This document shows, one piece after another, positions 878 to 21,338 of a stretch of DNA of 64,000 nt. This DNA is from Enterobacteria phage vB_EcoM_IME540. The notes beneath the pieces are model-generated. The model was not told the origin of the DNA. It did no database searches and saw only the letters and a program-made list of their open reading frames with translations. The position numbers and the translations under genes are program-made. The DNA lies in sequence record MT150133.1. One strand, 5' to 3'. Every line of letters begins with the position of its first letter. Positions within the stretch are counted from its first letter, which is position 1.

Positions 878-905
878 GGAACCTTCGGGTTCCTTTTTCG
901 TTTTT
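878..905 (+). terminator. intrinsic terminator (GGAACC-TTCG-GGTTCC hairpin plus T-run)
   Basis: Perfect 6-bp GC-rich stem with TTCG loop immediately after gp35 stop, followed by TTTTTCGTTTTT. Confidence 0.6.
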
Positions 906-951
906 ACGGCCATAAATATATAAAAGGCTATAACTCCCAAAGGAAACTCAA

Positions 952-1599: not shown

Positions 1600-1607
1600 G
1601 AGGCATT

Positions 1608-4844: not shown

Positions 4845-4877
4845 TAACAAGGGGCAATGCCCCTTTGGAGATAAATT

Positions 4878-5681: not shown

Positions 5682-5686
5682 GAAAT

Positions 5687-5694
5687 TATAAATA
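5687..5694 (+). promoter_or_regulatory. T4-type late promoter core TATAAATA
   Basis: Exact TATAAATA about 19 nt upstream of holin start, followed by SD AAGGAG. Confidence 0.55.
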
Positions 5695-5712
5695 TCTTTA
5701 AAGGAGAAAAGT

Positions 5713-6366
5713 ATGGAACCAAAAGTAGGAATATCATTATCAGACCTACTTTTTGGACTTCTTGATAGAATTTTTAAAGATACTTCTTCCGGGAAAGTAG
5801 TTTTTTCCCGGGTCCTAGTCGTGATATTATTGTTCTTTATGGCATTGGTTTGGTATAAAGGCGAGTATATTCTAAACTTTTATAAAGAGACAACTTATGC
5901 CTCTTATACTGAAATGATTAGACAAGACCAGGACAATAGATTTAAAATTGCGGCTATCGAGCAGCTCCGAATAGTGCATTCTTCTTCAGGCGCAGACTTC
6001 ACAGCAATATATTCTTTTAGACCAACCAACATGAATTATTTTGTGGATATGGTGGCTTACGAGGGTAAATTACCGGAAACGGTAGACGCAAAAAATACGG
6101 GAGGGTTTCCAATTGACAAAACGTCAGTAGAATATATGGTGGGAGTTAACGGGAACTATTTTGAATCAAGTACCGAAACTGTATTCCTTCCTACAAAGAA
6201 GAAAACACAATTCACGTATATGTTTTCGTGCCCGTTTTTTAATTTGGATAACGTCTACGCCGGCTCGATATCGTTGTACTGGTATGATATCAAACCGGAT
6301 TTAGGATTTCCTAGACTTTCGTCTATGTGCGGTCAGGCTGGGAGGACATTAGGTCGAACACGTTAG
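5713..6366 (+). CDS. t: holin T
   Basis: 217 aa; strong match to recalled T4 holin (LFG.LDR.FKD...GKV..SRV.VVILLF.MA.VWY, YSFRP.N.NYFVD..AYEGKLP, FLPTKK, YMFSCPFFNLDN.YAG). Confidence 0.95.
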   Translation: MEPKVGISLSDLLFGLLDRIFKDTSSGKVVFSRVLVVILLFFMALVWYKGEYILNFYKETTYASYTEMIRQDQDNRFKIAAIEQLRIVHSSSGADFTAIYSFRPTNMNYFVDMVAYEGKLPETVDAKNTGGFPIDKTSVEYMVGVNGNYFESSTETVFLPTKKKTQFTYMFSCPFFNLDNVYAGSISLYWYDIKPDLGFPRLSSMCGQAGRTLGRTR

Positions 6367-6638
6367 AAATTGGAGGTATACATCATTAAGTAACGGTGTA
6401 TATCTTCATACCCTTCATTAAATTGCTCAATAAGAGTGTCACGTTCATCTTCAGTTAATGACTTAAATAATTTGTTATAAGACAAACCATTAAGTTCCTT
6501 TCCATGTTCATTACGAATACCCAACTCATTCAAAAAGGCAATAAACTCATCACGACGTTGCATGATGTCTTCACAATCCGTTTTAATCAAAATGGAAACA
6601 ATAGTAGCAATTTCGGAAACAATTTCAATTTTAGTCAT
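6363..6638 (-). CDS. asiA: anti-sigma70 factor AsiA
   Basis: 91 aa; matches recalled T4 AsiA (ASILIK, FIAFLNE.G, LI.EFNEG.E...RYL.MYT); SD GAAGAGAA. Confidence 0.93.
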   Translation of the reverse strand: MTKIEIVSEIATIVSILIKTDCEDIMQRRDEFIAFLNELGIRNEHGKELNGLSYNKLFKSLTEDERDTLIEQFNEGYEDIHRYLMMYTSNF

Positions 6639-6681
6639 AATATTCTCTTCAATTCAGTACGTGTCATTATCTGATAGGGCT

Positions 6682-6710
6682 ATACTAACATATCCTTAGG
6701 GATTGTAAAC
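6682..6710 (-). promoter_or_regulatory. early sigma70-type promoter (-35 GTTTAC, 17-nt spacer, TGn-extended -10 TAGTAT)
   Basis: GTTTAC at 6705..6710 and TAGTAT at 6682..6687 on minus strand, 43 nt upstream of asiA ATG; leader starts AGCCCTATCA. Confidence 0.5.
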
Positions 6711-6854
6711 ATGTCCTTCGTTCTTTTTAACATATTCCTGATACATCTCTTCTATTGGTTCCTGGAACTTAAAATCAGCTCCCAGGAATTCCTCAAAGCA
6801 CTCCTGATCACGCGTACGCATGCCTGTTACGGTATTCTCTAAGTTATGACTCAT
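6696..6854 (-). CDS. hypothetical small protein (52 aa)
   Basis: Sub-threshold ORF MSHNLENTVTGMRTRDQECFEEFLGADFKFQEPIEEMYQEYVKKNEGHVYNP filling the gap between arn-region gene and asiA; SD-like AAGGGTAAAGG; speculative. Confidence 0.3.
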   Translation of the reverse strand: MSHNLENTVTGMRTRDQECFEEFLGADFKFQEPIEEMYQEYVKKNEGHVYNP

Positions 6855-6943
6855 AGCCTTTACCCTTATGTTTCTGTTTACGTTTAGACTCTTTAAAGTT
6901 TTTCTTCTTATCCTTATGGACAGAAGCCTTATTGAAATCGTGC

Positions 6944-7225
6944 TTAGCTACCAGATTGTTCACGTAATTTCCTTAATTGATATTCAAGAGAGCTGATAAT
7001 TTCTTTATTAGTTGCAATATACATATCACGTAGGAACGGCTTCAACCCTTCCATATTCCCATGGATTGTCTTGGAACTAATATTCTTTATATATTCATGG
7101 TCCAATGCATCCCAAGCTGGTTGGTTGACATAAGTTCCCCAGTTGTCTTCCACCATAACATTAAGACGTTTAATATGGTTAATATGGGCTTCGATTGCAT
7201 CAATCTGGAGTTGTTTAAGATTCAT
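6944..7225 (-). CDS. hypothetical protein (arn-region position)
   Basis: 93-aa ORF in gene string; start overlaps upstream stop (TAATG); T4 Arn is similar in size and position but sequence identity not verified. Confidence 0.6.
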   Translation of the reverse strand: MNLKQLQIDAIEAHINHIKRLNVMVEDNWGTYVNQPAWDALDHEYIKNISSKTIHGNMEGLKPFLRDMYIATNKEIISSLEYQLRKLREQSGS

Positions 7226-7713
7226 TAGTAAAGGTCCTCAGAGTAAAGTTCTTTTTCACTACCACCACGTTCAATACGTACTTGTCCGGCGTAAGTTGCA
7301 ATAATCATTGCTTCTTCACGGGTCCAATAGTTTGAATATTGGTCAATAAAGCCTTGGTCATCACCACAAACATGGTCTGATACAAGTTTATCACTTACCT
7401 GGTCAAGAACTTCAGCCATATCTTTAGAATAATGACGAGCGCCAGGAATAACCAGAGTCCCACCATCTTTTAACTTAAAGCGGTTGGCTGCACACACAAT
7501 TCGACGTTGATATTTTTCATTATTGTTCCAATAGGCAATCTGCCAACAGATTTCAGGAACCTCTTCTAAAACATCCTCTTCCGTATATTTGGTGTAGTCG
7601 CCATAGGCCTGTAATTTAGCTGCTAGACTTTCGGGCGTCTCACGAGAAAGAGCTTTATCTAATAAGGCCATTCGGTCTTTAAAGGATAATTCTTTACCTT
7701 TTAATGGATTCAT
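7225..7713 (-). CDS. hypothetical protein
   Basis: Track ORF begins at TTG; likely ATG start MNPLKGK at 7713 overlapping upstream stop (ATGA). Confidence 0.65.
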
Positions 7714-8039
7714 TTGAACCAACCTTTAACACGTTGCCACAGACTTTTCTGTTGAGCTTTATTAACACCAATTGAACGAATGACAGGTTGTGATTCCTGG
7801 TATTCTTTATAGTCTGCTTTATAAACTTCGTAAGCTGCGTCAACAAAGGAAGAAATAGCTGCCATATAATTTTTACGAATACCGAGTGGTGCTTTTCCAT
7901 CGTCACGATGAATAAAGTATGAACCGGCTTTAATCTTCACAATACTTCCGAGATAAGCACCATGATACCAAATGTCCCAACCTTCTTGAGTAGGTTCTGC
8001 ACAACGACGAAGTTCATTAACAATATTCAGCTTGTTCAT
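7710..8039 (-). CDS. hypothetical protein
   Basis: 109 aa; SD GAGGAAATT before ATG; co-directional in motA-asiA early cluster. Confidence 0.65.
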
Positions 8040-8049
8040 AATAATTTCC

Positions 8050-8682
8050 TCAGATTGCGTTAGTTACGGTTTTGATAACTTCAGATGATACATTTTGGAA
8101 GTCGATATAAGTATTCTTACCACCAGTCTTAATCTTAACATCAAGATTCAAGGAAGTAAACACTTGTTTTTCTTTATCAGTCATATTATAACCGAAGATA
8201 CGCATCATTCCGTCGCGACGGACTTCGATTTGACGAATACCATTGGTGCGTTTAGCGAATCGAACTTCAAGGTTGCTACGGTTTTCAGCAATTTCACGAA
8301 TCTCGATACGGTCTTCTAATAAAGCTTTAACTTCATCAGCCAGAGTTACCATTTCAGGAGTAACACCACGTGAACTGCGTGTTTTACGTTTTTCCAACAT
8401 CTCTGGAGCATTTTCAGAAGCGAACAGGTCGGCAGCTTTTTGAACTAGGTCCATTGCTTCACCTGTAGCCACTAAACCATCACCAGATTTTTCGATGAAT
8501 CCTTTCTTAATCAATACACCGATGTTAGAGTTAACTACCGCAGCACTAAATTGCTCACTCAGGGCTTCACGGACTTCGCCTGAAGTGATGAAGTTATGCT
8601 TGATGATATGTACTAAGATCGAAGCAGTTTTTTCATTCAGGACGTCTTCAGAAGCTTTGATGATATAAGTAATTTTAGACAT
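8050..8682 (-). CDS. motA: middle-transcription activator MotA
   Basis: Matches recalled T4 MotA (MSK.TYIIKAS.DVLNEKTA, VNSNIGVLIKKG..EKSGDGL..TGEA, KRTNGIR, MRIFGY.M); track start is GTG, true start ATG MSKITY with SD GGAGA. Confidence 0.93.
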   Translation of the reverse strand: MSKITYIIKASEDVLNEKTASILVHIIKHNFITSGEVREALSEQFSAAVVNSNIGVLIKKGFIEKSGDGLVATGEAMDLVQKAADLFASENAPEMLEKRKTRSSRGVTPEMVTLADEVKALLEDRIEIREIAENRSNLEVRFAKRTNGIRQIEVRRDGMMRIFGYNMTDKEKQVFTSLNLDVKIKTGGKNTYIDFQNVSSEVIKTVTNAI

Positions 8683-8720
8683 TTTGTATCTCCATTTCAC
8701 TCTATTGTTTTGATAGGTCT

Positions 8721-8749
8721 ATAGTATCATGTTTAAAGCAGAAGTAAAC
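8721..8749 (-). promoter_or_regulatory. early promoter (-35 GTTTAC, TGa-extended -10 TACTAT)
   Basis: Minus strand GTTTAC-TTCTGCTTTAAACATGA-TACTAT, then conserved leader AGACCTATCAA, 38 nt upstream of motA ATG. Confidence 0.6.
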
Positions 8750-8767
8750 ACTTTTTTCACTAAACCC

Positions 8768-8788
8768 AAAAAAGAACCCGAAGGTTCC
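8768..8788 (-). terminator. intrinsic terminator (GGAACC-TTCG-GGTTC hairpin plus TTTTTT)
   Basis: GC stem with TTCG loop and T-run on minus strand right after the micro-ORF that follows gene 52. Confidence 0.6.
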
Positions 8789-8893
8789 TTACTTTTTAAA
8801 GTGGGCCGCTATTAAACCTATAGCTAAGCCTGTCGCCAGGCCTAGAATAACAGCAAAGATACAGAGTAACAAGAACTCGACTCCAAGGCTCAT
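8789..8893 (-). CDS. small hydrophobic peptide (34 aa), translationally coupled to gp52
   Basis: ATG overlaps gp52 TGA stop (ATGA); sequence MSLGVEFLLLCIFAVILGLATGLAIGLIAAHFKK is a single predicted transmembrane helix; sub-threshold ORF. Confidence 0.45.
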   Translation of the reverse strand: MSLGVEFLLLCIFAVILGLATGLAIGLIAAHFKK

Positions 8894-10218
8894 AGAGCCT
8901 CCAAATCTTTAACATACTCAGTTACCACATCAGTGGTTTTCCAGTATTGATGCTCTTCTTTCTTAGCCTTGGCTTCGAGGGCCAGTTTCTTGGCTTCATC
9001 GGATGTGATATGGAAAATGTTCATGGCCACTAGTTTATCGGCATATTCGCCATAGACTTTATTACCAGCCAATTCCTCAGTTAAAACCTTACGGGTCTTA
9101 CCTTGGATAACTACAGTCCCATCAATAACATCTTTGATAAATGTAGCTTTAGCCAATGCTAGTTTAAAAGCTTCTTCGGTTTCGATGATTTTACCATCAA
9201 TACGTTTTTGTACAAAGGTCTTACGGACCTCAACGAAATCACGAATCAGTTCAACTGCATCTTCGTAAACCTTAAGCTTACCTTTTTCATTAATGACGGT
9301 CAGGTTTTGTGAACGACGTTCGATTAACCCGAAGTCCTTCATGAGTTTTTCGTGTTTCTTATCTTCATCAGTAGGCAATTCGTATTCTTTACGAATCTTA
9401 ACCTTGAAGCCAAAACCGTTCTCATCACAGTCATCATCATATGTGATATACCCTTTGTCTTCCAGAGGGTCTAATATCTTAGCCACATATGTTTCACGGT
9501 CATATTTGTACGGGATTTCCGTGATATGCATTTGGGTTCGGGATGTGAACTTATACGTTCCACGAATCTCATAACTACCAGGTTCAATCTCAACAACATC
9601 ACCGCGGAATTCAGGATAAGCCACTTTGGGTTTGGTTACTCGTTTTTCCTGAAGAATTTGCAGTACAGCTTTCTTAACAGAATCAAAACTATGAGGAAGA
9701 ATATTAGTTGCATAACCAGTTGCAATACCGGAAACGCCATTAAGAAGAACAGTAGGAATAATAGGCAGATAAAAAGCCGGTGGCTTATGTTCAACATCCG
9801 CATGAACCGGAGCATATTCTGTGTCCTTATAAACTTTTGCAAAGTTACTTCCAATACGAGCAAAAATATAACGAGAGGCTGCAGCTTTTTGAACCAATCG
9901 GGAACCAAAGTTACCTTGACCGTCTAACAATGGATAGTTGTTGTTCCATGTGTTAGCCATCAAAGCCCCTGCTTCCTGAGCAGAACCTTCACCGTGGTGA
10001 TATCCGAGGTCGGCTACACCACCAGCGATAGAAGCCAGTTTGTGGAATTTTTCTTTATTACCACGAGCCATATCAAGACAACGAGCCACTACAAAACGTT
10101 GTACAGGTTTAAAGCCATCAATCATATTTGGAATGGCTCGGTTTTCGACAGTATACATTGCATAAGCCAATGCTTCGTTGTCGATAATACTTTTTAAACC
10201 ACGAGATGTTAATTCCAT
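8890..10218 (-). CDS. 52: DNA topoisomerase II medium subunit gp52 (GyrA-like)
   Basis: 442 aa; near-identical over long stretches to recalled T4 gp52 (LKSIIDNEALAYAMYTVENRAIPNMIDGFKPVQRF, GNFGSR.VQKAAASRYIFAR). Confidence 0.97.
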   Translation of the reverse strand: MELTSRGLKSIIDNEALAYAMYTVENRAIPNMIDGFKPVQRFVVARCLDMARGNKEKFHKLASIAGGVADLGYHHGEGSAQEAGALMANTWNNNYPLLDGQGNFGSRLVQKAAASRYIFARIGSNFAKVYKDTEYAPVHADVEHKPPAFYLPIIPTVLLNGVSGIATGYATNILPHSFDSVKKAVLQILQEKRVTKPKVAYPEFRGDVVEIEPGSYEIRGTYKFTSRTQMHITEIPYKYDRETYVAKILDPLEDKGYITYDDDCDENGFGFKVKIRKEYELPTDEDKKHEKLMKDFGLIERRSQNLTVINEKGKLKVYEDAVELIRDFVEVRKTFVQKRIDGKIIETEEAFKLALAKATFIKDVIDGTVVIQGKTRKVLTEELAGNKVYGEYADKLVAMNIFHITSDEAKKLALEAKAKKEEHQYWKTTDVVTEYVKDLEAL

Positions 10219-10222
10219 AATT

Positions 10223-10363
10223 TTACCATACTAGTGAATGAATAGCCATAATAACATCGGAAATAAAAAGCACAACTTGGATAAGTCCGAACATTACTCC
10301 GTAATACAGCGCTACTAATAAAGCAGCAAGGGCTAACGAGTAGCCCAGGATTTTATTAATCAT
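10223..10363 (-). CDS. small membrane protein (46 aa)
   Basis: Track ORF starts at TTG; internal ATG gives MINKILGYSLALAALLVALYYGVMFGLIQVVLFISDVIMAIHSLVW, strongly hydrophobic; occupies the T4 ac/stp-like slot between 52 and ndd. Confidence 0.5.
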   Translation of the reverse strand: MINKILGYSLALAALLVALYYGVMFGLIQVVLFISDVIMAIHSLVW

Positions 10364-10517
10364 TTTTAATCGTCTTAAGTAAACCGACAAAAGTAGAAAG
10401 AACCCAACCAATAAGCAGAAAACTTAAGAATATCGGACCAGGGGTCCACACACCTAAAAAGAAGCAAACCGAACAGACTATAGCCGTAATAAGTTCAATA
10501 AAAACTACGATAATCAT
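10356..10517 (-). CDS. small membrane protein (53 aa)
   Basis: Sub-threshold ORF MIIVVFIELITAIVCSVCFFLGVWTPGPIFLSFLLIGWVLSTFVGLLKTIKND with SD GAGGAAAAT; stop overlaps next start (ATGATTAA); a GCGTC-TTCG-GACGC hairpin lies just upstream of its SD. Confidence 0.45.
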   Translation of the reverse strand: MIIVVFIELITAIVCSVCFFLGVWTPGPIFLSFLLIGWVLSTFVGLLKTIKND

Positions 10518-10604
10518 ATTTTCCTCATTAGCGTCCGAAGACGCCTTTAGTTTTAAGATTGTTACGATAGAACTGCATCACATGTTCGTTATGGAAATTA
10601 CTCA

Positions 10605-11054
10605 TTAGTAAGCCTGAAGGATGAATTTAAAGTTATCAGCCAACATACGGTTCATTTCTTCCAGTGTCTGGAGGTCGGAACTATGATTGCGAGTGAAAGC
10701 CATTGCAATTTGACCCTTACCAAAACCAGTAGTCAGAGGTTTCATCTTAGAAGCCGGTACATAAAGAACTTCATACACAACACCGTTCACTGCCATAGTG
10801 CGAGCTGATTGAGAACGTTTCTTACGAATGTTAGCCACGATACCATCGAGACCTTGAGCAGAACGTTGATTACCGACATAAAAACGAGCAGCTACGACAC
10901 GAGAATCAGCACCACCTTTAACAAAGAAGTAGAAGCCTGGTTGAGCAGAGATTTCTTTAGAAGGTTTACCATTTTGGTATTCACCGTTCTTAACATAAGC
11001 AACAGTAGTAGCACCAGCAGACAGAACGTTACGGCGAGTCATATAAGTATTCAT
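10605..11054 (-). CDS. ndd: nucleoid disruption protein Ndd
   Basis: 149 aa; matches recalled T4 Ndd ([52 protein letters not shown]); SD GAGGAAATT. Confidence 0.9.
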
Positions 11055-11103
11055 ATCAATTTCCTCAGTAGATTAATGTTTTGTTATCCGGTCAACGAGA
11101 ACC

Positions 11104-11132
11104 ATTATAACATGATTCTCGAGGTTGTAAAC
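11104..11132 (-). promoter_or_regulatory. early promoter (-35 GTTTAC, 17 nt, -10 TATAAT)
   Basis: Consensus hexamers on minus strand 49 nt upstream of ndd ATG; inverted repeat CGAGAA / TTCTCG brackets the -10. Confidence 0.65.
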
Positions 11133-11476
11133 TATTTTTGTAGCTGTTCTAAAATAAATCCGCTGGTGTAAAGGCTTGCATTATACAGGCGGTCAAGAGA
11201 TAACGAATCCAATCCATAAGCTTCACGAATTGCATTGATAGCACTCTCATAACTTGTATAATAAACATCGCGATAATCGCGGTCCATAGTCATGCGGAAC
11301 TTAATAAATTTGTAGAAACCAGTTTCAGGGTCCTGATAGAATGCAAATTCTGCAGACGCTAAATTTTTAAGGTTAACAGCTTTTGTGTCGCCTGAATAAC
11401 TTAAATCAAATGTTTCTGACATGCTAATCTGTTTAAAGAACATAATGTTGCGATTACCAAAAAATAATTTAGACAT
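11132..11476 (-). CDS. hypothetical protein
   Basis: Track ORF trimmed to ATG MSKLFFG with SD AAGGAAAAT. Confidence 0.6.
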   Translation of the reverse strand: MSKLFFGNRNIMFFKQISMSETFDLSYSGDTKAVNLKNLASAEFAFYQDPETGFYKFIKFRMTMDRDYRDVYYTSYESAINAIREAYGLDSLSLDRLYNASLYTSGFILEQLQK

Positions 11477-11486
11477 AATATTTTCC

Positions 11487-11699
11487 TTATTCAGCGTCAA
11501 CAGAAATAGCCATCAGTTCATCAACAGTAAGGCATTGCACACTAGGGCCTACACAAAAACGCTTAGTTGAATCATAAAGGTCTGTAGCATTAACAGGTTG
11601 TAATTCAGTCCCAACTTGCAAAGGAGAAATGCGAATCAGTTGTTGGCCATTATGCAATACAAAGCTCTCGCCGACTACCACATCTTTAAAAAGTTTCAT
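11487..11699 (-). CDS. hypothetical protein (70 aa)
   Basis: Track ORF starts at TTG; ATG MKLFKDVVV preceded by SD GAGGAAAAT. Confidence 0.55.
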   Translation of the reverse strand: MKLFKDVVVGESFVLHNGQQLIRISPLQVGTELQPVNATDLYDSTKRFCVGPSVQCLTVDELMAISVDAE

Positions 11700-11709
11700 A
11701 ATATTTTCC

Positions 11710-11820
11710 TCAGAAGTTAAAGAATACACGTACATGGTCAATCATAAAAACGATTGGGAAAATGCTCAATACCATTAACAACACAAACATGTTCCAAATT
11801 GCTTTAAGTAAGTTTTTCAT
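11710..11820 (-). CDS. small hydrophobic peptide (36 aa)
   Basis: Sub-threshold ORF MKNLLKAIWNMFVLLMVLSIFPIVFMIDHVRVFFNF directly downstream of an early promoter; SD GGAGA; its stop TGA forms part of the next gene's SD. Confidence 0.4.
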   Translation of the reverse strand: MKNLLKAIWNMFVLLMVLSIFPIVFMIDHVRVFFNF

Positions 11821-11846
11821 AATCATCTCCATTAGTTGATAGGTCT

Positions 11847-11875
11847 ATAATATCATGATTAATGGAGATGTATAC
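11847..11875 (-). promoter_or_regulatory. early promoter-like element (-35 GTATAC, -10 TATTAT with TGa)
   Basis: Same module and leader (AGACCTATCAACTAATGGAG) as other early promoters; spacer ATCTCCATTA is complementary to leader TAATGGAGAT. Confidence 0.5.
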
Positions 11876-11965
11876 TGATTTATGCCAATTTCCACAACAA
11901 TAAACTAAAACATACGCAAATCACTGGGATACAGGCCATCCAAATAAGGCACCACATTTTGCTAC

Positions 11966-12232
11966 TCAAAACACCACCTCTTTTATCTCAATTAATCCCC
12001 TGTGCAATGCAGTACGAAGGTCATAAAGAATATCTATGCCGTCAACATTATCCAGTTTTCCATCAATAAGCTTTTCTAAATCTTCCTTGGATGCGATTAA
12101 GGGGCGGAGAAATTTACATTCAGAAAGAGATAACTCTGTAGTAACATCATCACCTTCACCTGATGCATCATACATAGCGGCAACAACCATACCTGTAACT
12201 TTGTGTTTAGCGTAATATAATTTGATATCCAT
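11966..12232 (-). CDS. hypothetical protein (88 aa)
   Basis: Track ORF begins at GTG inside the promoter; ATG MDIKLYYAK follows SD GAGGAG in conserved leader. Confidence 0.6.
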   Translation of the reverse strand: MDIKLYYAKHKVTGMVVAAMYDASGEGDDVTTELSLSECKFLRPLIASKEDLEKLIDGKLDNVDGIDILYDLRTALHRGLIEIKEVVF

Positions 12233-12260
12233 TTTGTTCTCCTCATTAGTTGATAGGAAG

Positions 12261-12290
12261 ATAGTAACACCATCCATGGCGTATGTAAAC
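12261..12290 (-). promoter_or_regulatory. early promoter (-35 GTTTAC, 18 nt, -10 TACTAT)
   Basis: GTTTAC-ATACGCCATGGATGGTGT-TACTAT then leader CTTCCTATCAACTAATGAGGAG on minus strand. Confidence 0.55.
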
Positions 12291-12306
12291 ACCTATTTTA
12301 AAAAAA

Positions 12307-12864
12307 TTATAAGGCGAGATACCAGCCGTTGTAATTGCTCTTACGGACTAGCTTTGTGATGGCTTCTCTGTCACCAGAGAACTTAGGAGTGAACAGGACA
12401 TCGCCTGCCTCATTTACCGAAGTGTCGAATATAATTATACAATCTGCAACTTTATGATTCAAGAGCGGGCCCAGGTTAATCCCTGTTCCATAAGGGAAGT
12501 CACCGGAGTATCCTGTAGTGCAGGAAATCCACTTAGAATCCGACTGATGGGTCTTGACCTCTACGCGTAGTCCACAGTACATAGGATGAGCTAAAACATC
12601 CCATGCATAGGTATAAGGGTCGTCATGGTCTTCCAGACCACTGTTAACATATCCTTTCAACCAATCGGCAACCATGTACTCGGCGTACGTTGCAATGACA
12701 CACCGAGTCAATACTTCTTTCTTATCTTGGGACGGGTCTTGACTTAAGGAATACAATACGGTATCCTTAATCTTGACCTTCATTTCGCCTGTTAAATCAG
12801 ATGTCTTCAGGGTAAATGTCGGCATCGCTGCCAATCGGAGTAGTCCCGGGTTCGTCTTCACCAT
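12307..12864 (-). CDS. denB: putative endonuclease IV (DenB-like) by position and size
   Basis: From ATG with SD GAGG the product is 185 aa, the size of T4 DenB, and it lies between ndd and rIIB; sequence identity not recalled; start could also be 12825 or 12888. Confidence 0.5.
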   Translation of the reverse strand: MVKTNPGLLRLAAMPTFTLKTSDLTGEMKVKIKDTVLYSLSQDPSQDKKEVLTRCVIATYAEYMVADWLKGYVNSGLEDHDDPYTYAWDVLAHPMYCGLRVEVKTHQSDSKWISCTTGYSGDFPYGTGINLGPLLNHKVADCIIIFDTSVNEAGDVLFTPKFSGDREAITKLVRKSNYNGWYLAL

Positions 12865-13096
12865 AAATGCCTCGAATATGAAGTTCACCGTAATAAATTC
12901 GGTCGTCGGGTTCTAAAGTATCAGAATCTGCTAAAGGAAATTCGCCTTCGACCACCTCATCGCATTCTAGAAAAGCGTAATGAACATCACCCGGGTGTTT
13001 AACGAGCTTAGCACAATAAACAGTACCTGCTTTATGGAATCCACGCAAATTAGAAATCTTGATATCACGTTCACCGACATTCAGGTAATTAATCAT
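12797..13096 (-). CDS. hypothetical protein (99 aa)
   Basis: Track ORF starts at GTG; ATG MINYLNVG with SD GGTGAG; 3' end overlaps denB-like start. Confidence 0.5.
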   Translation of the reverse strand: MINYLNVGERDIKISNLRGFHKAGTVYCAKLVKHPGDVHYAFLECDEVVEGEFPLADSDTLEPDDRIYYGELHIRGIYGEDEPGTTPIGSDADIYPEDI

Positions 13097-13097
13097 T

Positions 13098-13295
13098 TTA
13101 CTCACCGAAATAAGAAATACGAACCTCTAAACAATGAGCATAAGCGCCCATCGCATCCAGTTGTGCAATCAGTAACCCTTGTTGACGGATATCAAGAGTT
13201 TCAAAAACACCACCTTCAATAAAGGTTTCTAGTGCGTTAATTTTAAGAACCAACTGGTCGTATTCTTCAACTACACGTGCTTGGTAACCTAACAT
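13098..13295 (-). CDS. hypothetical protein (65 aa)
   Basis: SD GAGGAATT before ATG; immediately downstream of rIIB. Confidence 0.5.
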   Translation of the reverse strand: MLGYQARVVEEYDQLVLKINALETFIEGGVFETLDIRQQGLLIAQLDAMGAYAHCLEVRISYFGE

Positions 13296-13307
13296 AATTC
13301 CTCATTA

Positions 13308-13332: not shown

Positions 13333-14301
13333 TTAGTATTTGTATTCGTTTGCGAACTGTTCGGTGACGTCTTCTAGAACTTCATAATAACATACACGCA
13401 TTTTAGCATCACCGTAATCGACCGGAATACTAACAACATCACGTGGGTTAACTTTACATGAAACCACTTTACAGCTTGAGTTACCAAAATGACCGATATA
13501 ACTACGAGAGCAAACGTGCAGACCACTTGAACAGGTTACTTCATCATCGTCATTTACACGAGAACGAGGCATTTTAACCGGTTTGCCTGGTGAGTTATCA
13601 AACGTACCGGTACGGCAGTCGGTGTAATCGGAGTTAACCACCTTCCACGTAATAAAGTGACCATCTTCAGTAATTTTGATGTCGTTTGCCACCAAGAAGT
13701 CGAACAAACGTTGTACAGCTTTTTCGCTTGGGTTTTCTAACAGGTTCTCAAGGAACGGCAGGTAGAATTCGAAGTCTTCACCGTTTTCCATTGAAGTGAT
13801 AATACGGTCAATCAACCCTGAACGCAATTCAATGCCTTGGTAAACCAGACGTCCACCTTCAATACGAACGTTGCCTTTAACAAAGGCCTTAACGGCTTCT
13901 TTAATGGAAATCAGTTTAATCGCGTCATCGAAACGAGATTCTTTAAGAGCCTGTACGATGGCATCAAAATGTTTGTTCTTATTAGTGGTGTTCCATACTG
14001 TACGACCTTCAGTGATGGATACGAATTTAGAACTCGCGTTCCAGATAATTTCAGGGCGAGAGCCGCCAATAGTAACTTCAACGGGAACTTCACGAGGCTC
14101 GTTAGGAACTGTTACTTTGATATTTCCGGTAATAACTACCTGGGCCTGTCCAGCTCCTTTAGCATTTTTCAGGACTTTACGGATTGTATCAACTGATACA
14201 CCGTACCAGTCAGCCAACTCATTCTGAGTATAATTACCAGAAATATATAACTTAACGATTTCAACTTGCTCAGCGGAGGTCAAACACTTAATATTGTACA
14301 T
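13333..14301 (-). CDS. rIIB: rIIB protein
   Basis: 322 aa; matches recalled T4 rIIB (MYNIKCLT..EQ.EIVKLY.SGNYTQ.ELADW.GVSVDTIR.VLKNA, SRLFDFLVANDI.ITEDG, CS.GLHVCS.SYI.HFG). Confidence 0.95.
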   Translation of the reverse strand: MYNIKCLTSAEQVEIVKLYISGNYTQNELADWYGVSVDTIRKVLKNAKGAGQAQVVITGNIKVTVPNEPREVPVEVTIGGSRPEIIWNASSKFVSITEGRTVWNTTNKNKHFDAIVQALKESRFDDAIKLISIKEAVKAFVKGNVRIEGGRLVYQGIELRSGLIDRIITSMENGEDFEFYLPFLENLLENPSEKAVQRLFDFLVANDIKITEDGHFITWKVVNSDYTDCRTGTFDNSPGKPVKMPRSRVNDDDEVTCSSGLHVCSRSYIGHFGNSSCKVVSCKVNPRDVVSIPVDYGDAKMRVCYYEVLEDVTEQFANEYKY

Positions 14302-14315
14302 AATATTTCCTTAGA

Positions 14316-16526
14316 TTAAGCCGCTTCCACGGCTTTCATGAATTTAACAATTTGAGCTACAGAAGCCTCGGTAATGGATGTTCCACGACGATACATGTAG
14401 TCCGAAACTAAATGGTAATCAGATTCAAACTGTACAGTCATTTTATCATTGTTGCTTGAAGCATTATCAGTCAACTTAAAAAAAGTATTGTTACAAATTT
14501 TCTTGATAACGGAAAGCTTATCATCAGTGATATAACCATGGAAATTCATATAACGGAATATATCATAGAAATTACTCAGACGAGTATATGCTTCAGTTAC
14601 CGGCTTATCACTGAAATACTTGGTCATGAAATTAAGCTGAGGGAACTTAGCAATGATTTCAAGGTAATACCTAGCTCGAGTATTGCTACCAAGGTAGTCA
14701 TCAACATCTACCGCGTCTAAGGCTTCAGCATAAGCTTCTAATGTAGCTTCCATCAAGCATTCGCATTGGCCTAACTTTTTAATCTTTTTGGCAATCTGAG
14801 GGCGAATGATATGGAATTCGGTAGAACCAATCAAATTAGCCATACGACACATGGTAGTGGTATTGATGTCAAAGATACCATAAGCTTCATCCATTCCCAT
14901 AATATCAGAACGACTGCCAAACAGAACATAACCTGTAATTTCTTCTGCTTCGGCAGCAGTCAAATACATGGTCTCTTGTTGCCAGCGCCCGTCTTTAATG
15001 AACCAACGATAAGCACTCGGTGTTTTAGGACGCGGTTCTGATGAACGGACAGTAACCGGAATCCATGGCTTAACAATTTTATTCAGTTCAGAGACTTTAT
15101 AAAAATGAATTGTGTCACCTTTAAAAAGTTCTTTAACCTTTTCAAGTTGTTGCATTTGCAACATTGAATTTGGGTCGACAAAAATAAGGTCAGTTCCGTA
15201 TTTAGGAATATTGTTCTCTTTAACAATTTTCTTAGCCGAAGCACTGTTGTCCATTGCCAGAGCCCAAAGACCTCGAACTAATGGCACACGACCTTTTTCA
15301 TCATCATAAACAACATGGATTTCTTTCTTATTAATGCCTAATAAATTACTAAGTCCTGCTACCGAAGAAGTATTACCACTTGACTTAATTCGTTTCAAAC
15401 GTGGGTCTGAAACGACTTCGTAAACCACACCTAAATTAATAAGGTCGTTTTGAAGGGTATAACGCTGGTATAATTTCTCATATGTCAATTTTTCTGTAGT
15501 AAACAGGCTAGTTCCACCTTTTTTGGTAAGATAGTCACGAGCACTGTAACCAAGGTTAGAAAGGTCACGATAAACATGGCGTGGATTATCAGATTCAACC
15601 CATTCCTGTGTATCGTTTTTAAAGACCACTGCATCCAGTGCTTCGATACGGGTTGCAATATTTTCCATCGTACGTTTATCAAGAGACAACACTTCACGAG
15701 AAGGAGCAATATCCAGTGAACCCATAGGGAACTTAATATAAACTACATCATGGCGAGTACGCATCCACGTGCCTTTATTATAGGCGGAATCCAATGGATA
15801 AACAATACCACCATAAACTGCATAAAGTCCTGAACGTTCGAAGCTGCCATAATTTGTAGTGGTTACAGGATGGTAATCGTCAAATTCAGGGAAATAATCA
15901 ACTTCAACACCGTCTACATCACCAAGACCAATGAAAGGCCGCATGATATAACGAACTTCAGTTTCAAACTTACGGAAATCTTCTTCATCAACAGGAACCG
16001 TGATTTCGATACCTGTTTTATCACCTGGCTGCATAGGTTCTACGAAAGTAGGTTTAATCTGCGGGCCATCACCATCCATATAAGCTACATAACCACGAAC
16101 TTCACCGTTATGCCATGAGGTGATATTAAACGTTTCGGTATAACTGAACGGAGATTTTGAACCAAGGCCAAAGCCACCGATGAAATCGTTAGAAGCCGTT
16201 TTGGATGATGCGAAATAAGAGTTGTACAAACCTGTTTCGTTTTCATCACCACGAATTTGGAAATCACTCATACCCGGACCGAAATCACGACATACAAAGC
16301 GAGGGTCTAGTTTACCAGGAACCTGTACTTTCCAACGTTCTTTATTACCATTTAGAATATGGGCATCAATCATGTTGGTAATTAGTTCACGAACTACGGC
16401 ACGTACTTTATTACTATAAAGGTCTGATGACAAAATTTTAAAGACCTTAGGCGATGCCTGAATAGTAAAGCCTGTGGACTTAGCACCATTACCAATGATT
16501 TGTTCTTTTTCGGTTTCAATAATCAT
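14316..16526 (-). CDS. rIIA: rIIA protein
   Basis: 736 aa immediately upstream of rIIB; GHKL-like N-terminus (VVRELITNMIDAH); conserved rIIA-rIIB arrangement. Confidence 0.93.
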   Translation of the reverse strand: MIIETEKEQIIGNGAKSTGFTIQASPKVFKILSSDLYSNKVRAVVRELITNMIDAHILNGNKERWKVQVPGKLDPRFVCRDFGPGMSDFQIRGDENETGLYNSYFASSKTASNDFIGGFGLGSKSPFSYTETFNITSWHNGEVRGYVAYMDGDGPQIKPTFVEPMQPGDKTGIEITVPVDEEDFRKFETEVRYIMRPFIGLGDVDGVEVDYFPEFDDYHPVTTTNYGSFERSGLYAVYGGIVYPLDSAYNKGTWMRTRHDVVYIKFPMGSLDIAPSREVLSLDKRTMENIATRIEALDAVVFKNDTQEWVESDNPRHVYRDLSNLGYSARDYLTKKGGTSLFTTEKLTYEKLYQRYTLQNDLINLGVVYEVVSDPRLKRIKSSGNTSSVAGLSNLLGINKKEIHVVYDDEKGRVPLVRGLWALAMDNSASAKKIVKENNIPKYGTDLIFVDPNSMLQMQQLEKVKELFKGDTIHFYKVSELNKIVKPWIPVTVRSSEPRPKTPSAYRWFIKDGRWQQETMYLTAAEAEEITGYVLFGSRSDIMGMDEAYGIFDINTTTMCRMANLIGSTEFHIIRPQIAKKIKKLGQCECLMEATLEAYAEALDAVDVDDYLGSNTRARYYLEIIAKFPQLNFMTKYFSDKPVTEAYTRLSNFYDIFRYMNFHGYITDDKLSVIKKICNNTFFKLTDNASSNNDKMTVQFESDYHLVSDYMYRRGTSITEASVAQIVKFMKAVEAA

Positions 16527-16533
16527 ATTTTTC

Positions 16534-16737
16534 TCAATTCAGGTTACGTTTAAAAATGTCTGCCACTTCAAGGAGCTCGTCCTTAGTAGCGATGTCGTTG
16601 AGTATTTTATATCTGATTTCTTTAAAGCGTTCTTTAAAATCCTCAGCCGCATTGATATCAAAAAATCGTTGGATTAACCGGAATTCTTTATGGACGGCTT
16701 TATCGAACAAATCAATATTCACTTTAAAGTTTGTCAT
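16534..16737 (-). CDS. hypothetical protein (rIIA.1-like position)
   Basis: 67 aa, SD GAGGTAG, directly upstream of rIIA. Confidence 0.55.
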   Translation of the reverse strand: MTNFKVNIDLFDKAVHKEFRLIQRFFDINAAEDFKERFKEIRYKILNDIATKDELLEVADIFKRNLN

Positions 16738-17047
16738 TTTTAACTACCTCATGTTGAACATATTCTCTGGTAGAACCTAGTTCAGCCAGAATTCTTCTCA
16801 TAGAACCCATTGTACTCTTGTGATCCCGATGGCGATACATTATCTCTAAAACCTTTTCCTGGACCACAGGAGAGAGCGCCTGGTTATCTTTAATCTTTAA
16901 GGCAATAGATTTTACAGCCTTAAGGTATTCAAGTCCCTTACCGCTTGTAGTCACTATTCCTTCGTCCTTACAATTTCGTATGGCTGTTTCCATAAAGGAT
17001 AGAGCCAGGTTGTCAGTGTTCACTATACTGTTATCTTGCATAATCAT
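16724..17047 (-). CDS. hypothetical protein (107 aa)
   Basis: Track ORF trimmed to ATG MIMQDNSIV after SD AGAGGTGAG. Confidence 0.55.
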   Translation of the reverse strand: MIMQDNSIVNTDNLALSFMETAIRNCKDEGIVTTSGKGLEYLKAVKSIALKIKDNQALSPVVQEKVLEIMYRHRDHKSTMGSMRRILAELGSTREYVQHEVVKNDKL

Positions 17048-17097
17048 ATTCTCACCTCTAGATAATCCTATCATAACCACGGGTCTTTGTAAACCCC

Positions 17098-17118
17098 GAA
17101 AAGGGCCCGAAGGCCCTT
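17098..17118 (-). terminator. intrinsic terminator (GGGCC-TTCG-GGCCC hairpin plus TTTT)
   Basis: GC-rich hairpin with TTCG loop just after the stop at 17125; a -35-like GTTTAC (17089..17094) follows. Confidence 0.6.
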
Positions 17119-17124
17119 ATTAGT

Positions 17125-17286
17125 TTAGTTACTTGAATCGACCTTATAGACTTGTCCGCGGGTTTGGTAAACTTCGCCGTCCCATGTCTCGACTGTAATA
17201 GTCACGTATTCTGCAAACTGAGGTCTAGTATCAGTCCAGATATAACCGTATTCACCGGTGACGAGCGTAACCCAGTACTTTCTCAT
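17125..17286 (-). CDS. hypothetical protein (53 aa)
   Basis: Track ORF trimmed to ATG MRKYWVTLV with SD AAGGAGA; directly downstream of gene 39. Confidence 0.5.
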   Translation of the reverse strand: MRKYWVTLVTGEYGYIWTDTRPQFAEYVTITVETWDGEVYQTRGQVYKVDSSN

Positions 17287-17330
17287 AAAGTCTCCTTTTG
17301 TATGGCACCAATTAGTACCATACATATTTA

Positions 17331-19148
17331 TTACGACATCCAGGCCTTACGGAGTTGAGGGTCATTACCAAGGAGCATTTCGAACTGTTCTTTCCAATCT
17401 TCAGGTAATTGAACAACATCAAATTTAGGGTCTTGAATCATTCGGCGGTATTCAGCTTTCTCAAGAGAACCTAGTCCTTTGATATACCGAATAGAATGTT
17501 TTGGTAGAGAGTCCTTAGCTTTGGTATAACTAGGAACATCATAGAACCATTCCTGTTCTTTACCGACCTGGGCAATAATTACCGGAGTTTTACAGAAACG
17601 TACTCGGCCTTGTTCGAACAATTCAGGCCATTGACTAAAGAAGGCTAGCAATGATGGATAAATCGAACCAGTACCATCCACATCGGCATCGGTCATAATA
17701 GCAATATTACGATAGTTGGTTTTCTCTGCGGGTTCACCAATAACCAATCCAGTGATTGCACAGATATCAAATAGTTCCTTGTTCTTCATGATATCTGTTG
17801 CTGTCATTCCCCAGGTATTCATAACCTTACCACGTAATGGATAGCCACCTTGAAGGTCTTTATTACGGACTTCAATGAAAGGACCCATAGCGGAATCACC
17901 TTCGGTTAGGAACAGGGTTGTATCAGCATCTTTGCCGTATAAGTTAGCTTTAATATGCTTATGGACCTTGGCTTTAGAAGCTTTCTTAGCGGCTTTAGTT
18001 TCAGCGGCCTTTTCAGCTGCTAATTTACGTGCTAAAGCAGCTTCAACGATAGGCATAATCAACCCATCGACCTTAAGAATAGCTGTGGCAATTTTCTTAG
18101 CATCAATTTGGATATGATTGCGAATCTCACCAAAAGGAGAGGTCAAACGTTCTTTAGTCTGTGAATCAAAACGCATGTTGCTCATATCACGAATGAACAT
18201 CACCATCGTAAGGCATTCTTTAACACGAGCTTTAGTTACTTCAATTCCACGGTATTTCTTTTTAATGCCTGGCAGAAGGTGTTCACAAATATCATCGAAT
18301 ACACATTCAACGTGGTGGCCACCATTCTTGGTGTGGATATTGTTTACATAAGTCAGTTGACGGAATCCATCCGGAGAAGGAGTGAACGCCATCGAAACAT
18401 TATCGGTTTCTTGGATTACAAAGTCTTCACCAAATTGCTTAGCATACTTTTTAAAGTTGCCATCTACTTTTTTACCATTAAAAGTAAATTGAATATCAGG
18501 ATAAACTACGGCCAGAGTTTGCAATCGGTCTAATGTAATATCCAGATAAATTTGTGACAGGCTATTTTCTTCGAAATGATTAAAGTCTGGGGTGAATATA
18601 ACCGAAGTACCCTTACCTTTAGATTTCTTAGTAGACCAACCTTTGTTTTCCATTCCGTTTGAACAGTTAACAGTAATCTCATTCTCACCATCAGAGGTGA
18701 TGCCTGTGAACAAAACAGAGAAGATATTAGTTAAACTACTACCGACACCATTCATGCCGCCTGTCTTACGCTCAGCGTCATCTCCAAAGTTACCACCTGC
18801 CTTTGGAATAGTCCATGCAGCTACAGGACCTGGAATCTGTTCACCATTTTGGTCGGTGACCATTGCTTGTGGAATACCACGACCATTATCAGAAACTGAA
18901 ACCTGGTTATTCTTAATTTGAACATCAATTTTATTTGCGAATTTAAAATTGGTACGAATAGCTTCATCGACAGAGTTATCAATGATTTCATCAATTAATT
19001 TAACCAGTCCAGGAACATAGTTTACCTGTGTAAAATTACCAAACAGGAATCGACCGTGAGCTTCATTAGCACTTGAGCCAATATACATCCCACTACGTTT
19101 TTTGATATGTTCAATGTCGGACAGTACTTTAATTTCATTCTTAATCAT
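17331..19148 (-). CDS. 39: DNA topoisomerase II large subunit, uninterrupted gp39+gp60 equivalent (GyrB-like)
   Basis: 605 aa with GHKL ATPase (NSVDEAI, DNGRGIP, GGMNGVGSS) and TOPRIM (LFLTEGDSA, IMTDADVDG) in one frame; SD GAGGAAATAAC. Confidence 0.95.
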   Translation of the reverse strand: MIKNEIKVLSDIEHIKKRSGMYIGSSANEAHGRFLFGNFTQVNYVPGLVKLIDEIIDNSVDEAIRTNFKFANKIDVQIKNNQVSVSDNGRGIPQAMVTDQNGEQIPGPVAAWTIPKAGGNFGDDAERKTGGMNGVGSSLTNIFSVLFTGITSDGENEITVNCSNGMENKGWSTKKSKGKGTSVIFTPDFNHFEENSLSQIYLDITLDRLQTLAVVYPDIQFTFNGKKVDGNFKKYAKQFGEDFVIQETDNVSMAFTPSPDGFRQLTYVNNIHTKNGGHHVECVFDDICEHLLPGIKKKYRGIEVTKARVKECLTMVMFIRDMSNMRFDSQTKERLTSPFGEIRNHIQIDAKKIATAILKVDGLIMPIVEAALARKLAAEKAAETKAAKKASKAKVHKHIKANLYGKDADTTLFLTEGDSAMGPFIEVRNKDLQGGYPLRGKVMNTWGMTATDIMKNKELFDICAITGLVIGEPAEKTNYRNIAIMTDADVDGTGSIYPSLLAFFSQWPELFEQGRVRFCKTPVIIAQVGKEQEWFYDVPSYTKAKDSLPKHSIRYIKGLGSLEKAEYRRMIQDPKFDVVQLPEDWKEQFEMLLGNDPQLRKAWMS

Positions 19149-19172
19149 GTTATTTCCTCATGTAGTAGGAGA

Positions 19173-19199
19173 ATATTATCCCATTTCACTTAAAGCATA
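19173..19199 (-). promoter_or_regulatory. MotA-dependent middle promoter (MotA box TATGCTTTA, 12 nt, -10 TAATAT)
   Basis: MotA-box consensus (a/t)(a/t)TGCTT(t/c)A at the expected distance from a TAnnnT -10, 24 nt upstream of gene 39 ATG. Confidence 0.55.
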
Positions 19200-19216
19200 A
19201 AAGGGCCGAAGCCCTT
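19199..19216 (-). terminator. intrinsic terminator (GGGC-TTCG-GCCC hairpin plus TTTT)
   Basis: Hairpin overlaps stop of lipoprotein gene; T-run merges into the MotA box. Confidence 0.5.
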
Positions 19217-19475
19217 AATCAAATCGAATGGTCGACTTTTTAAAGAATAAACCAGAACAAACAGTCCCTTCAACCCTTTTACCTGTCGGACCCACAGCAA
19301 TAAAGCCTGTACGTTGGAAATCATCTTCAGAACAGCCAAATAGGTTGTATCCTGTGATTTGGATTTGTTCGTAGCCATTTGCATCCAATACACGGGTAGC
19401 ATTATCGCCATCAGTACATCCAACCAACGAAACCGCTAATACGAGAGCTGCAATAGAACGATTAATATATTTCAT
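19215..19475 (-). CDS. predicted lipoprotein (86 aa)
   Basis: N-terminal signal MKYINRSIAALVLAVSLVGC with lipobox LVGC. Confidence 0.6.
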   Translation of the reverse strand: MKYINRSIAALVLAVSLVGCTDGDNATRVLDANGYEQIQITGYNLFGCSEDDFQRTGFIAVGPTGKRVEGTVCSGLFFKKSTIRFD

Positions 19476-19481
19476 AATTTC

Positions 19482-19658
19482 TCACTTAGTCAGCAGGTCG
19501 TAAAAACCGCCATTAACATGTTTAGGAGCCGAGACTAACCGAACAGCCAGCCGATGGCAATCAGGACAAACATCATTATCTCTTTCAGAGATTTTCTTGA
19601 TTTTTTCGTATTCTTTTGCACAGTCTTCAGATTGGCATTTGTAATCATAAAGTGGCAT
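19482..19658 (-). CDS. zinc-ribbon protein, FmdB-like (58 aa)
   Basis: Begins MPLYDYKCQSEDC ... CPDC, the FmdB-type MPxYxYxCxxC...CPxC signature; track ORF has an upstream alternative start. Confidence 0.55.
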   Translation of the reverse strand: MPLYDYKCQSEDCAKEYEKIKKISERDNDVCPDCHRLAVRLVSAPKHVNGGFYDLLTK

Positions 19659-19869
19659 TATAAGTTTCCTTCCAGAAGTCGGTGCCTTCAGCAGTGATTT
19701 CACGGAACACCGCATAGATAGGGTTTTTATCACCTTGATTTTCGTATACATAAACCGATGATAAATGAGAAAACATATCAGAATGTTCCTTTTGGACCAC
19801 GATTAAATCAGGGTTGAACAGAACATCTTCAAATTCTTCACGAGTCGAGTTCATAGTAACTTTAGCCAT
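19645..19869 (-). CDS. hypothetical protein (74 aa)
   Basis: ATG MAKVTMNST with SD GAGAGGAAAAT; downstream of an early promoter-like element. Confidence 0.6.
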   Translation of the reverse strand: MAKVTMNSTREEFEDVLFNPDLIVVQKEHSDMFSHLSSVYVYENQGDKNPIYAVFREITAEGTDFWKETYNATL

Positions 19870-20582: not shown

Positions 20583-21338
20583 TTAATTCAATACATTAAC
20601 CACTGCACTACGAGGTACTACACTAAAATCACCAGCATGGACAACGTTCAGGAGCTCAACACCATCTTCAACCCACTGGTCTGTTACCCAACCACAGATA
20701 GGATTATCAAAAGGACGACGGATAGACACAGCAGCACACAACAGGTCGGTAGGGTCTTGTTCTTCAACTTCTTGGAACAGGATTAACTCTGCTTCATAAA
20801 CCAGGTTTTTCTCTACTTTGTTATTATCTAACCGGCGACCGTGGATGACATAAGATTTGGCAAACCAGTCACTTTTGGCAAATTCTTCAACAATAAATTC
20901 GCCTTCGCCAAAAACAGCAGTCAGAGTTTTATAACCAGAAATCAAGGCCTTAGTTTTAATTTCAGGTTCAACCAGTTTGTAGGTTTTGCCGATTTCGATA
21001 GTCTGAGTAGTCATAGGTGATTCCTTAATTTCCAGTGGTTTAACAGGGCATACATAAGTGCTTAAAACATCAAAATCAATTAGCTGGCTTGCCATTGGGG
21101 CCAAACGAATAAATGAATCAATTTCCCGTTGTGACAAGCGAATGGTGTGGATTTCCGGGACACCGCATTCTTGAACTGTTACAGATTTAATATTATCAAA
21201 CTCATCAGGTTCAATAGAAAGAATACGGAACTCGGTACCTTTAGTCATCTTTTTAAGGATGTCATAAGCTTGGTTGTGGAGCTTAAGGGCTGAAAACGGC
21301 GTAACAATATATTTGGCATTCGGATCAAAAGTGTTCAT
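20583..21338 (-). CDS. hypothetical protein, paralog of 19943..20509
   Basis: 251 aa; start overlaps upstream stop (ATGA); shared C-terminal motif TDQWVE.GV.L.N.V..G.F.VVP. Confidence 0.7.
   Translation of the reverse strand: MNTFDPNAKYIVTPFSALKLHNQAYDILKKMTKGTEFRILSIEPDEFDNIKSVTVQECGVPEIHTIRLSQREIDSFIRLAPMASQLIDFDVLSTYVCPVKPLEIKESPMTTQTIEIGKTYKLVEPEIKTKALISGYKTLTAVFGEGEFIVEEFAKSDWFAKSYVIHGRRLDNNKVEKNLVYEAELILFQEVEEQDPTDLLCAAVSIRRPFDNPICGWVTDQWVEDGVELLNVVHAGDFSVVPRSAVVNVLN

Follow-up and report, generated by a model that had tools for sequence, protein, structure and literature searches.

An undivided gene 39 for the topoisomerase II large subunit in a Dhakavirus of the JS98/QL01 group

Introduction

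In phage T4, the large subunit of DNA topoisomerase II is divided between genes 39 and 60, and gene 60 itself is read with a 50-nt translational hop. Enterobacteria phage vB_EcoM_IME540 (sequence record MT150133.1) raises the question of how the same subunit is encoded when one long reading frame stands where T4 has two genes. We analysed a 64,000-nt stretch of its DNA, referred to here as the window, and asked whether the frame at 17331..19148 encodes the entire subunit, whether it ever carried the MobA element found in the T4 gene, and from which promoter it is likely to be transcribed. The unsplit gene has been described as the parental state, into which an element of ~1.1 kb encoding MobA was inserted independently and rarely, in a few clades (Manning & Atkins, bioRxiv 10.1101/2022.08.31.505936). 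Our reading, to which we assign a probability of about 0.96, is that 17331..19148 is gene 39 of the Dhakavirus (JS98/QL01-group) type, an undivided GyrB/ParE-like type IIA subunit that was never invaded by MobA and is likely to be transcribed from a MotA/AsiA-dependent middle promoter.

Results

Gene 39 and its product

An uninterrupted open reading frame occupies exactly 17331..19148 on the minus strand, beginning with ATG and encoding 605 amino acids with zero internal stops in the open-reading-frame listing. A Shine-Dalgarno sequence, GAGGA (19155..19159, minus strand), is found 6 nt 5' of the ATG. The strand is an addition to the first-pass annotation, which did not give it. We assign this frame as gene 39, an undivided gene whose product, the DNA topoisomerase II large subunit, corresponds to T4 gp39 and gp60 together. 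At the DNA level, the gene shares 99.6% identity with gene 39 of Escherichia phage QL01 (Dhakavirus, JS98 group), the two being separated by about eight synonymous substitutions (dS 0.02, dN 0), and its product has zero amino acid differences from QL01 gp39 (YP_009202736.1), which is annotated as 'DNA topoisomerase II large subunit'. The gp39 of phage PSD9 differs at one amino acid. For the gene, dN/dS rises from 0.02 in the comparison with PSD9 to 0.06 with phage 04086 and 0.11 with T6, a range that indicates strong purifying selection and excludes a chance reading frame.

Pfam places a GHKL ATPase domain at residues 47-189 (18582..19010, minus strand; HATPase_c PF02518, E 2.4e-10), a transducer domain at residues 250-385 (17994..18401, minus; DNA_gyraseB PF00204, E 4.9e-13), a TOPRIM domain at residues 411-519 (17592..17918, minus; Toprim PF01751, E 0.0031, below the gathering score) and a C-terminal TOPRIM-associated region, TOPRIM_C, at residues 521-583 (17400..17588, minus; PF16898, E 2.7e-4, also below the gathering score), the last of which aligns to T4 gp60. 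The GHKL ATP-binding motifs are all present: the N-box with E54, N58 and D61 (E54-IIDN58-SVD61), the G1 motif D87NGRG and the G2 motif G130GMNGVG. A QTK loop with its lysine (Q330-T-K332) lies in the transducer, and the acidic residues of TOPRIM occur in E416-GDSA and in D487-A-D489-V-D491-G492. Of these, D487 aligns to D486 of T6 gp39, a named metal-binding residue (PMC11461880).

When solved structures were searched with phmmer, residues 1-605 matched residues 1-604 of chain 8ylu_C (1087 bits, E reported as 0), and the protein also aligned with 8yo3_C; the former is T6 gp39 and the latter an artificial T4 gp39-gp60 fusion (PMC11461880). This full-length, structure-backed match to T6 gp39, together with the motifs, offsets the sub-threshold Toprim and TOPRIM_C scores, and the solved T6 and T4 structures combined with the identical deposited protein settle the identity of the gene. 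That a single 605-aa frame holds both the GHKL ATPase and TOPRIM, as the first-pass annotation had proposed, is borne out by the list of reading frames, by Pfam and by the T6 match.

The T6 protein is 78% identical to the window gp39 at the amino acid level and collinear with it from end to end, and the catalytic motifs are common to both. Their alignment has two gap columns, an internal one at column 301, where the window protein has one extra residue (position 301), and one at the C terminus, where the terminal Gln of T6 is missing. The succession of GHKL, transducer and TOPRIM is also shared with bacterial GyrB/ParE and with the N-terminal half of eukaryotic Topo II, and matches in the PDB reach human Topo II alpha (E 1.9e-58) and ParE (E 1.7e-42). 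The window protein is, however, shorter than bacterial GyrB/ParE, having neither the GyrB-specific insert nor the C-terminal tail. The T-even topoisomerase relaxes DNA and is not known to supercoil it.

The partner subunit is encoded in the same window. Gene 52 (8890..10218, minus strand) specifies a topoisomerase II medium (DNA-cleavage) subunit of 442 aa (Pfam PF00521, E 3.2e-76) that matches the T4 gp52 chains 8yo3_A and 8ylu_A over their full length and keeps, in AAASRY117IFAR, the Tyr117 named as catalytic in gp52 (PMC11461880). The T2 and T6 enzymes are likewise of the two-subunit type (PMC11461880), with a gp52 partner carrying Y117. With a GHKL domain, a transducer, TOPRIM and a partner subunit, gp39 has the sequence features expected of a type IIA topoisomerase ATPase/TOPRIM subunit of the GyrB/ParE/gp39 class.

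Homology with the solved T6 structure suggests a heterotetramer of two 605-aa gp39 chains and two gp52 chains. The GHKL domains, dimerizing on ATP binding, would make up the N-gate and carry out ATP hydrolysis, and the QTK loop of the transducer would sense the gamma-phosphate. In TOPRIM, residues E416, D487, D489 and D491 would hold Mg2+ next to Tyr117 of gp52, and the metal would assist this tyrosine in cutting and resealing one duplex, the G-segment, while a second, the T-segment, goes through. We infer this activity from what is established about type IIA topoisomerases and from the T6 structures; ATP-dependent strand passage has been demonstrated for both the T6 and the T4 enzymes (PMC11461880). 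The sequence itself hints at no departure from the type IIA scheme.

The T4 split and bypass sites

We retrieved the T4 region and built T4 gp39 and the joined gp60 for BLASTP. Residues 1-474 of the window protein correspond to T4 gp39 1-473 and residues 478-605 to T4 gp60 32-159, each at 77% identity, with only three residues (EKT) between the two alignments. These BLASTP boundaries and the codon listing locate the unoccupied T4 MobA split site at codons 474-478 (A-E-K-T-N; 17715..17729, minus strand), where A474-EKT-N478 aligns without a gap to A-ENL-N of T6. In T4 the split cuts through TOPRIM: gp39 retains the half with E-GDSA, and gp60 carries the half with DxDxD. The first-pass annotation was correct that T4 divides the subunit between genes 39 and 60 with a 50-nt hop, but its assignment of the ATPase to one gene and TOPRIM to the other does not stand.

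The bypass site is equally recognizable. The T4 take-off glycine, gp60 G46 (GGA, after which come TAG and the 50-nt gap; annotated bypass region, T4 2803-2852), corresponds to G492 of the window protein, and codon comparison shows codons 492-493 (GGT ACT; 17670..17675, minus strand) to be homologous to the Gly46 codon and the one after it. Here, codons 487-494 are contiguous, reading GAT GCC GAT GTG GAT GGT ACT GGT and then TCG, with no 50-nt coding gap. Whereas T4 has a 43-aa insert-encoded C-terminal extension on gp39, a 31-aa insert-encoded N terminus on gp60, a MobA element of ~1.1 kb within the gene, and a stop codon and 50-nt gap after the DxDxDG glycine, the window has no counterpart to any of these. 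The homology to gp60 is located inside the gene 39 frame, and no separate gene 60 follows downstream; between gene 39 and rIIA there are only a 66-aa reading frame with no Pfam match, a DUF7367 reading frame and rIIA.1. Alignment to both T4 proteins and the codon listing thus agree with the original description of the frame as T4 gp39 plus gp60 without split or bypass, and the unsplit T6 gp39 is collinear with it across both T4 sites.

Searches for a MobA cassette

A MobA cassette would be recognized by an HNH endonuclease of ~270 aa, or its pseudogene, at Topo2L codons ~466-473, by insert-encoded extensions and by a gap of ~50 nt; a bypass gap would come after the DxDxDG glycine and be accompanied by a stop codon, a stem-loop and matching codons for take-off and landing. 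None of these features of a T4 gene 60-type cassette was found in the window. With the intact 272-aa MobA of phage G50 as the tblastn query, the best match in the window had an E value of 0.39 and lay at an unrelated location. The whole T4 insert (T4 2803-3777) matched the window in blastn only at 17674-17717, where 44 nt (75%) reflect homology to the parental gene, and the T4 bypass DNA had no match in the window. From rIIA to motB, the list of reading frames and Pfam left no frame unaccounted for and none large enough for an endonuclease. The earlier remark that no mobA-like endonuclease is present accordingly holds under both tblastn and blastn. Cassettes of the T4 type are rare in general: at a coverage of at least 80%, they occur in 41 of 50,697 records of the phage collection.

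Relatives and genome context

Gene 39 is in one piece in all 44 listed records with at least 91.6% nucleotide identity, among them JS98, JS10, IME08, WG01 and MX01. The match covers the full 1818 nt in 41 of the 44; two records of vB_EcoM_005 match only query positions 1-1799. In phage 04086 the match is in two pieces spanning 2006 nt, which we considered as a possible insert and rejected, as a single coding sequence of 1818 nt is annotated and the additional match is located upstream. In the AnYang record, two reading frames are annotated under the gene 39 match.

The surroundings are also those of the genus. The gene order in the window is of the T4 type: rIIB (13333-14301), rIIA (14316-16526), rIIA.1 (16534-16737), the DUF7367 reading frame (16724-17080), the small 66-aa frame (17125-17325), 39, 39.1 (19215-19475), 39.2, cef and motB. 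Gene 39 is 1818 nt long in the Dhakavirus genomes JS98, JS10, IME08, WG01, MX01, PSD9 and QL01, as it is here, and Dhakavirus neighbours are the same from rIIA to 39.2. A terminator scan also returned a GC-rich hairpin at 17101..17118, 3' of gene 39 and the small frame; it has a UUCG loop on the minus-strand reading and a weak T-tract on either strand. Over 25 kb, no deposited genome exceeds PSD9, which reaches 95.2% identity at a coverage of 93%; the window thus belongs, as a further mosaic member, to the well-sampled genus Dhakavirus.

An undivided gene could also arise in ways other than by never having been split. One is a hit-and-run history, in which the gene was once split by MobA and became whole again through a precise deletion of endonuclease and bypass cassette. 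Such re-fusions have been reported in a clade of Aeromonas phages, where the re-fused gene is a full-length reading frame that still includes both extensions, C- and N-terminal, encoded by the insert (bioRxiv 10.1101/2022.08.31.505936). Here, the T4 insert-encoded extensions (C-terminal on gp39, N-terminal on gp60) gave tblastn matches in the window with best E values of only about 0.1-0.9, all elsewhere, the junction is gap-free against T6, and the protein has the length of T6 gp39 (605 aa). A re-fused gene would be expected to hold an additional stretch of ~70 aa resembling the extensions around residues ~474-478, and the window protein has no such stretch. With no remnant of insert-encoded termini and no difference in length from T6, we reject re-fusion, the chance of which appears negligible. 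Alternatively, a gene that is in reality split or frameshifted might have been smoothed over during sequencing or assembly. The two-frame annotation in AnYang does suggest sequencing frameshifts in gene 39 of some records, but the 44 listed relatives were deposited independently and are uninterrupted, and the purely synonymous divergence from QL01, with an unchanged protein, points to an independent intact copy; an artefact is thus very improbable. In the reading we prefer, with which none of the observations conflicts, the MobA homing-endonuclease and bypass cassette never entered gene 39, and for this reason the phage has neither a gene 60 nor a 50-nt hop.

A predicted middle promoter

A MotA-dependent middle promoter is predicted at 19173..19197 on the minus strand, with the MotA box TGCTTTA at 19197-19191, a 12-nt spacer and the -10 element TAATAT at 19178-19173. 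Transcription is predicted to start near 19166, about 18 nt 5' of the gene 39 ATG. The minus strand 5' of the gene reads AAGGGCTTCGGCCCTT-TTA-TGCTTTA-AGTGAAATGGGA-TAATAT-TCTCCTACTACAT-GAGGA-AATAAC-ATG. Middle promoters have the consensus (a/t)(a/t)(a/t)TGCTTtA, centred near -30 and 12 +/- 1 bp from TAtaaT (Hinton review, PMC2988021), and the extended box ttaTGCTTTA (19200-19191, minus) agrees with the MotA-box consensus. The -10 element is a good one; it reads TAATAT and not TATAAT.

The layout is common to T4, where gene 39 is preceded by a hairpin, AGCTTTA, 12 nt and TATAAT, with the mapped start 7 nt past the -10; the start of this T4 promoter, P39, has been mapped at 5349 (PMC2988021 Table 1). 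Alignment shows the window element to be positionally homologous to T4 P39, and the element is identical in the window, QL01, PSD9 and 04086, four Dhakavirus genomes. Directly upstream of the MotA box and 3' of gene 39.1, the terminator scan found a GC-rich, terminator-like hairpin that has UUCG as its loop and TTTT after it (19201..19216, minus strand); this arrangement of UUCG hairpin and MotA box is present in T4 as well. A scan for sigma-70 promoters gave fewer matches than in shuffled sequence and none of relevance in front of gene 39, which is consistent with a MotA-dependent promoter that has no -35 element.

Both regulators of middle transcription are encoded in the window. The activator gene motA is at 8050..8700 on the minus strand (Pfam MotA_activ E 4.2e-39, MotCF E 9.8e-14; also by the PSD9 annotation), and asiA, for the anti-sigma co-activator of middle promoters, is at 6363..6638 on the same strand (PF09010, E 9.8e-22). 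As listed, the motA frame starts with GTG, and the true start is probably slightly downstream.

The MotA-box pattern by itself is only moderately specific: a scan of the window gave 11 matches against 3.5 expected, an enrichment of about 3-fold, and 1 of 100 shuffles reached 11. We therefore base the promoter call on positional homology to P39 and on the presence of motA and asiA in the window. This modest enrichment also leaves room for the view that the match upstream of gene 39 is coincidental and that the gene owes most of its expression to transcripts reading through from early promoters upstream, and in T4 the extension of early transcripts does reach prereplicative genes (PMC2988021). 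The element, however, stands exactly where T4 P39 was mapped, immediately behind the conserved UUCG hairpin, and keeps both the 12-nt spacing and the distances to the Shine-Dalgarno sequence and ATG; it is invariant in the four Dhakavirus genomes, and the terminator-like hairpin directly upstream would limit early transcripts. We consider read-through unlikely as the main source of gene 39 expression, but the two modes are not mutually exclusive and could coexist. The most likely origin of gene 39 transcripts is a middle promoter that depends on MotA/AsiA and is homologous to T4 P39. A MotA-box middle promoter was already proposed in the first-pass annotation, and the upstream sequence, the T4 homology and the encoded MotA and AsiA all favour it, the dependence on MotA being probable on these sequence grounds.

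Discussion

The first-pass annotation took the absence of the split as a mark of this phage. The phage does lack the MobA-associated arrangement, but this does not set it apart, because an undivided gene is the default in the whole genus. The 44 listed relatives, together with the parental state described in the literature, make the undivided gene the rule and not a phage-specific mark. Undivided gene 39 is already known and correctly annotated in public genomes, and in this sense the locus is ordinary.

Whether such a gene is open to MobA is a more tentative matter. Gene 39 of the window may be a naive, unoccupied homing site, with the nick near codon ~485 (an approximate position, from Manning & Atkins, bioRxiv 10.1101/2022.08.31.505936), or it may be naturally resistant to MobA; we regard this proposal as speculative and somewhat doubtful. 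If the site is susceptible, co-infection with a phage carrying active MobA might lead to nicking of gene 39 and to its conversion into a split form that carries the bypass cassette. The window shares 71% nucleotide identity over 132 nt with the T6 target region, and if this level of identity confers resistance, it would explain why the cassette is absent from Dhakavirus in the collection.

Two practical points follow for the group. Gene 39 of the window provides an additional 'parental' reference allele for studies of invasion by the MobA/bypass cassette, and labels of the form 'gp39 ... N-terminal region', transferred from T4 to genomes of the JS98 group, are misleading. The split T4 gene with its ribosome hop is the rare exception, and an undivided gene 39 is the standard in T4-like phages.

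Gene content flanking gene 39

The undivided gene 39, which encodes the 605-aa topoisomerase II large subunit, is inconsistently named among deposited relatives. In several genomes the full-length gene carries the label 'gp39 topoisomerase II large subunit, N-terminal region' (JS98, EF469154; JS10, EU863409; QL01, in the note field; PEi20), which is inherited from the split gene of T4 and is wrong for an undivided gene 39. Elsewhere it is named 'parE' (UGJNEcP3/4 and UP19) or, in the ESCO10 record, 'DNA primase-helicase subunit'.

On one side of the gene, between gene 39 and rIIA.1, the window has two small ORFs on the minus strand (16724-17325); T4 and T6 have no ORFs there. One, of 66 aa, is without a Pfam match, and its counterpart in QL01 is annotated as 53 aa; the second encodes a 118-aa DUF7367 protein. 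Between the two lie a UUCG hairpin (17101-17118) and a sigma-70-like promoter match (17093-17065).

On the other side, QL01, PSD9, WG01 and IME08 carry goF/comC-alpha, a gene of about 395 bp, between 39.2 and cef. Comparison with the genomes of these relatives found it precisely missing from the 39.2-cef interval of the window (junction at ~19655, within 19482-19869), so that cef adjoins 39.2. Because MX01, Bp7, ABTNLsp5 and 04086 have the same junction without goF, the presence or absence of this gene is an already known polymorphism inside the genus Dhakavirus. Farther along, the ORF at the motB.1 position (20583-21338, minus strand) encodes 251 aa, compared with 183 aa in both QL01 and PSD9, and about 250 nt within it (21083-21334) are unmatched in PSD9. 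Its C-terminus weakly matches the motB family (PF17613, E 1.3e-8), as does the motB gene next door.

Regions distant from gene 39

The slot between gene 47 and a-gt.2, filled in T4 by mobB, is here occupied by a free-standing 205-aa ORF (50181-50798, minus strand). A weak GIY-YIG match (PF01541, E 0.0078, under the gathering score) and an 'FYIGST' motif are present in this ORF, which is probably a seg-like homing endonuclease; the 'HNH endonuclease' annotation of its QL01 homologue looks like a mislabel. The ORF is unrelated to MobA, the HNH homing endonuclease whose cassette splits the T4 gene, and lies 31 kb from gene 39.

The first part of the window (1-13300) keeps the T4 gene order, and contains the long-tail-fibre genes 35-37, the receptor-recognition protein, holin t, asiA, motA, gene 52, ndd and denB. 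It is in the tail-fibre region that identity to the best-matching genomes is broken into several segments, a pattern suggestive of host-range mosaicism.
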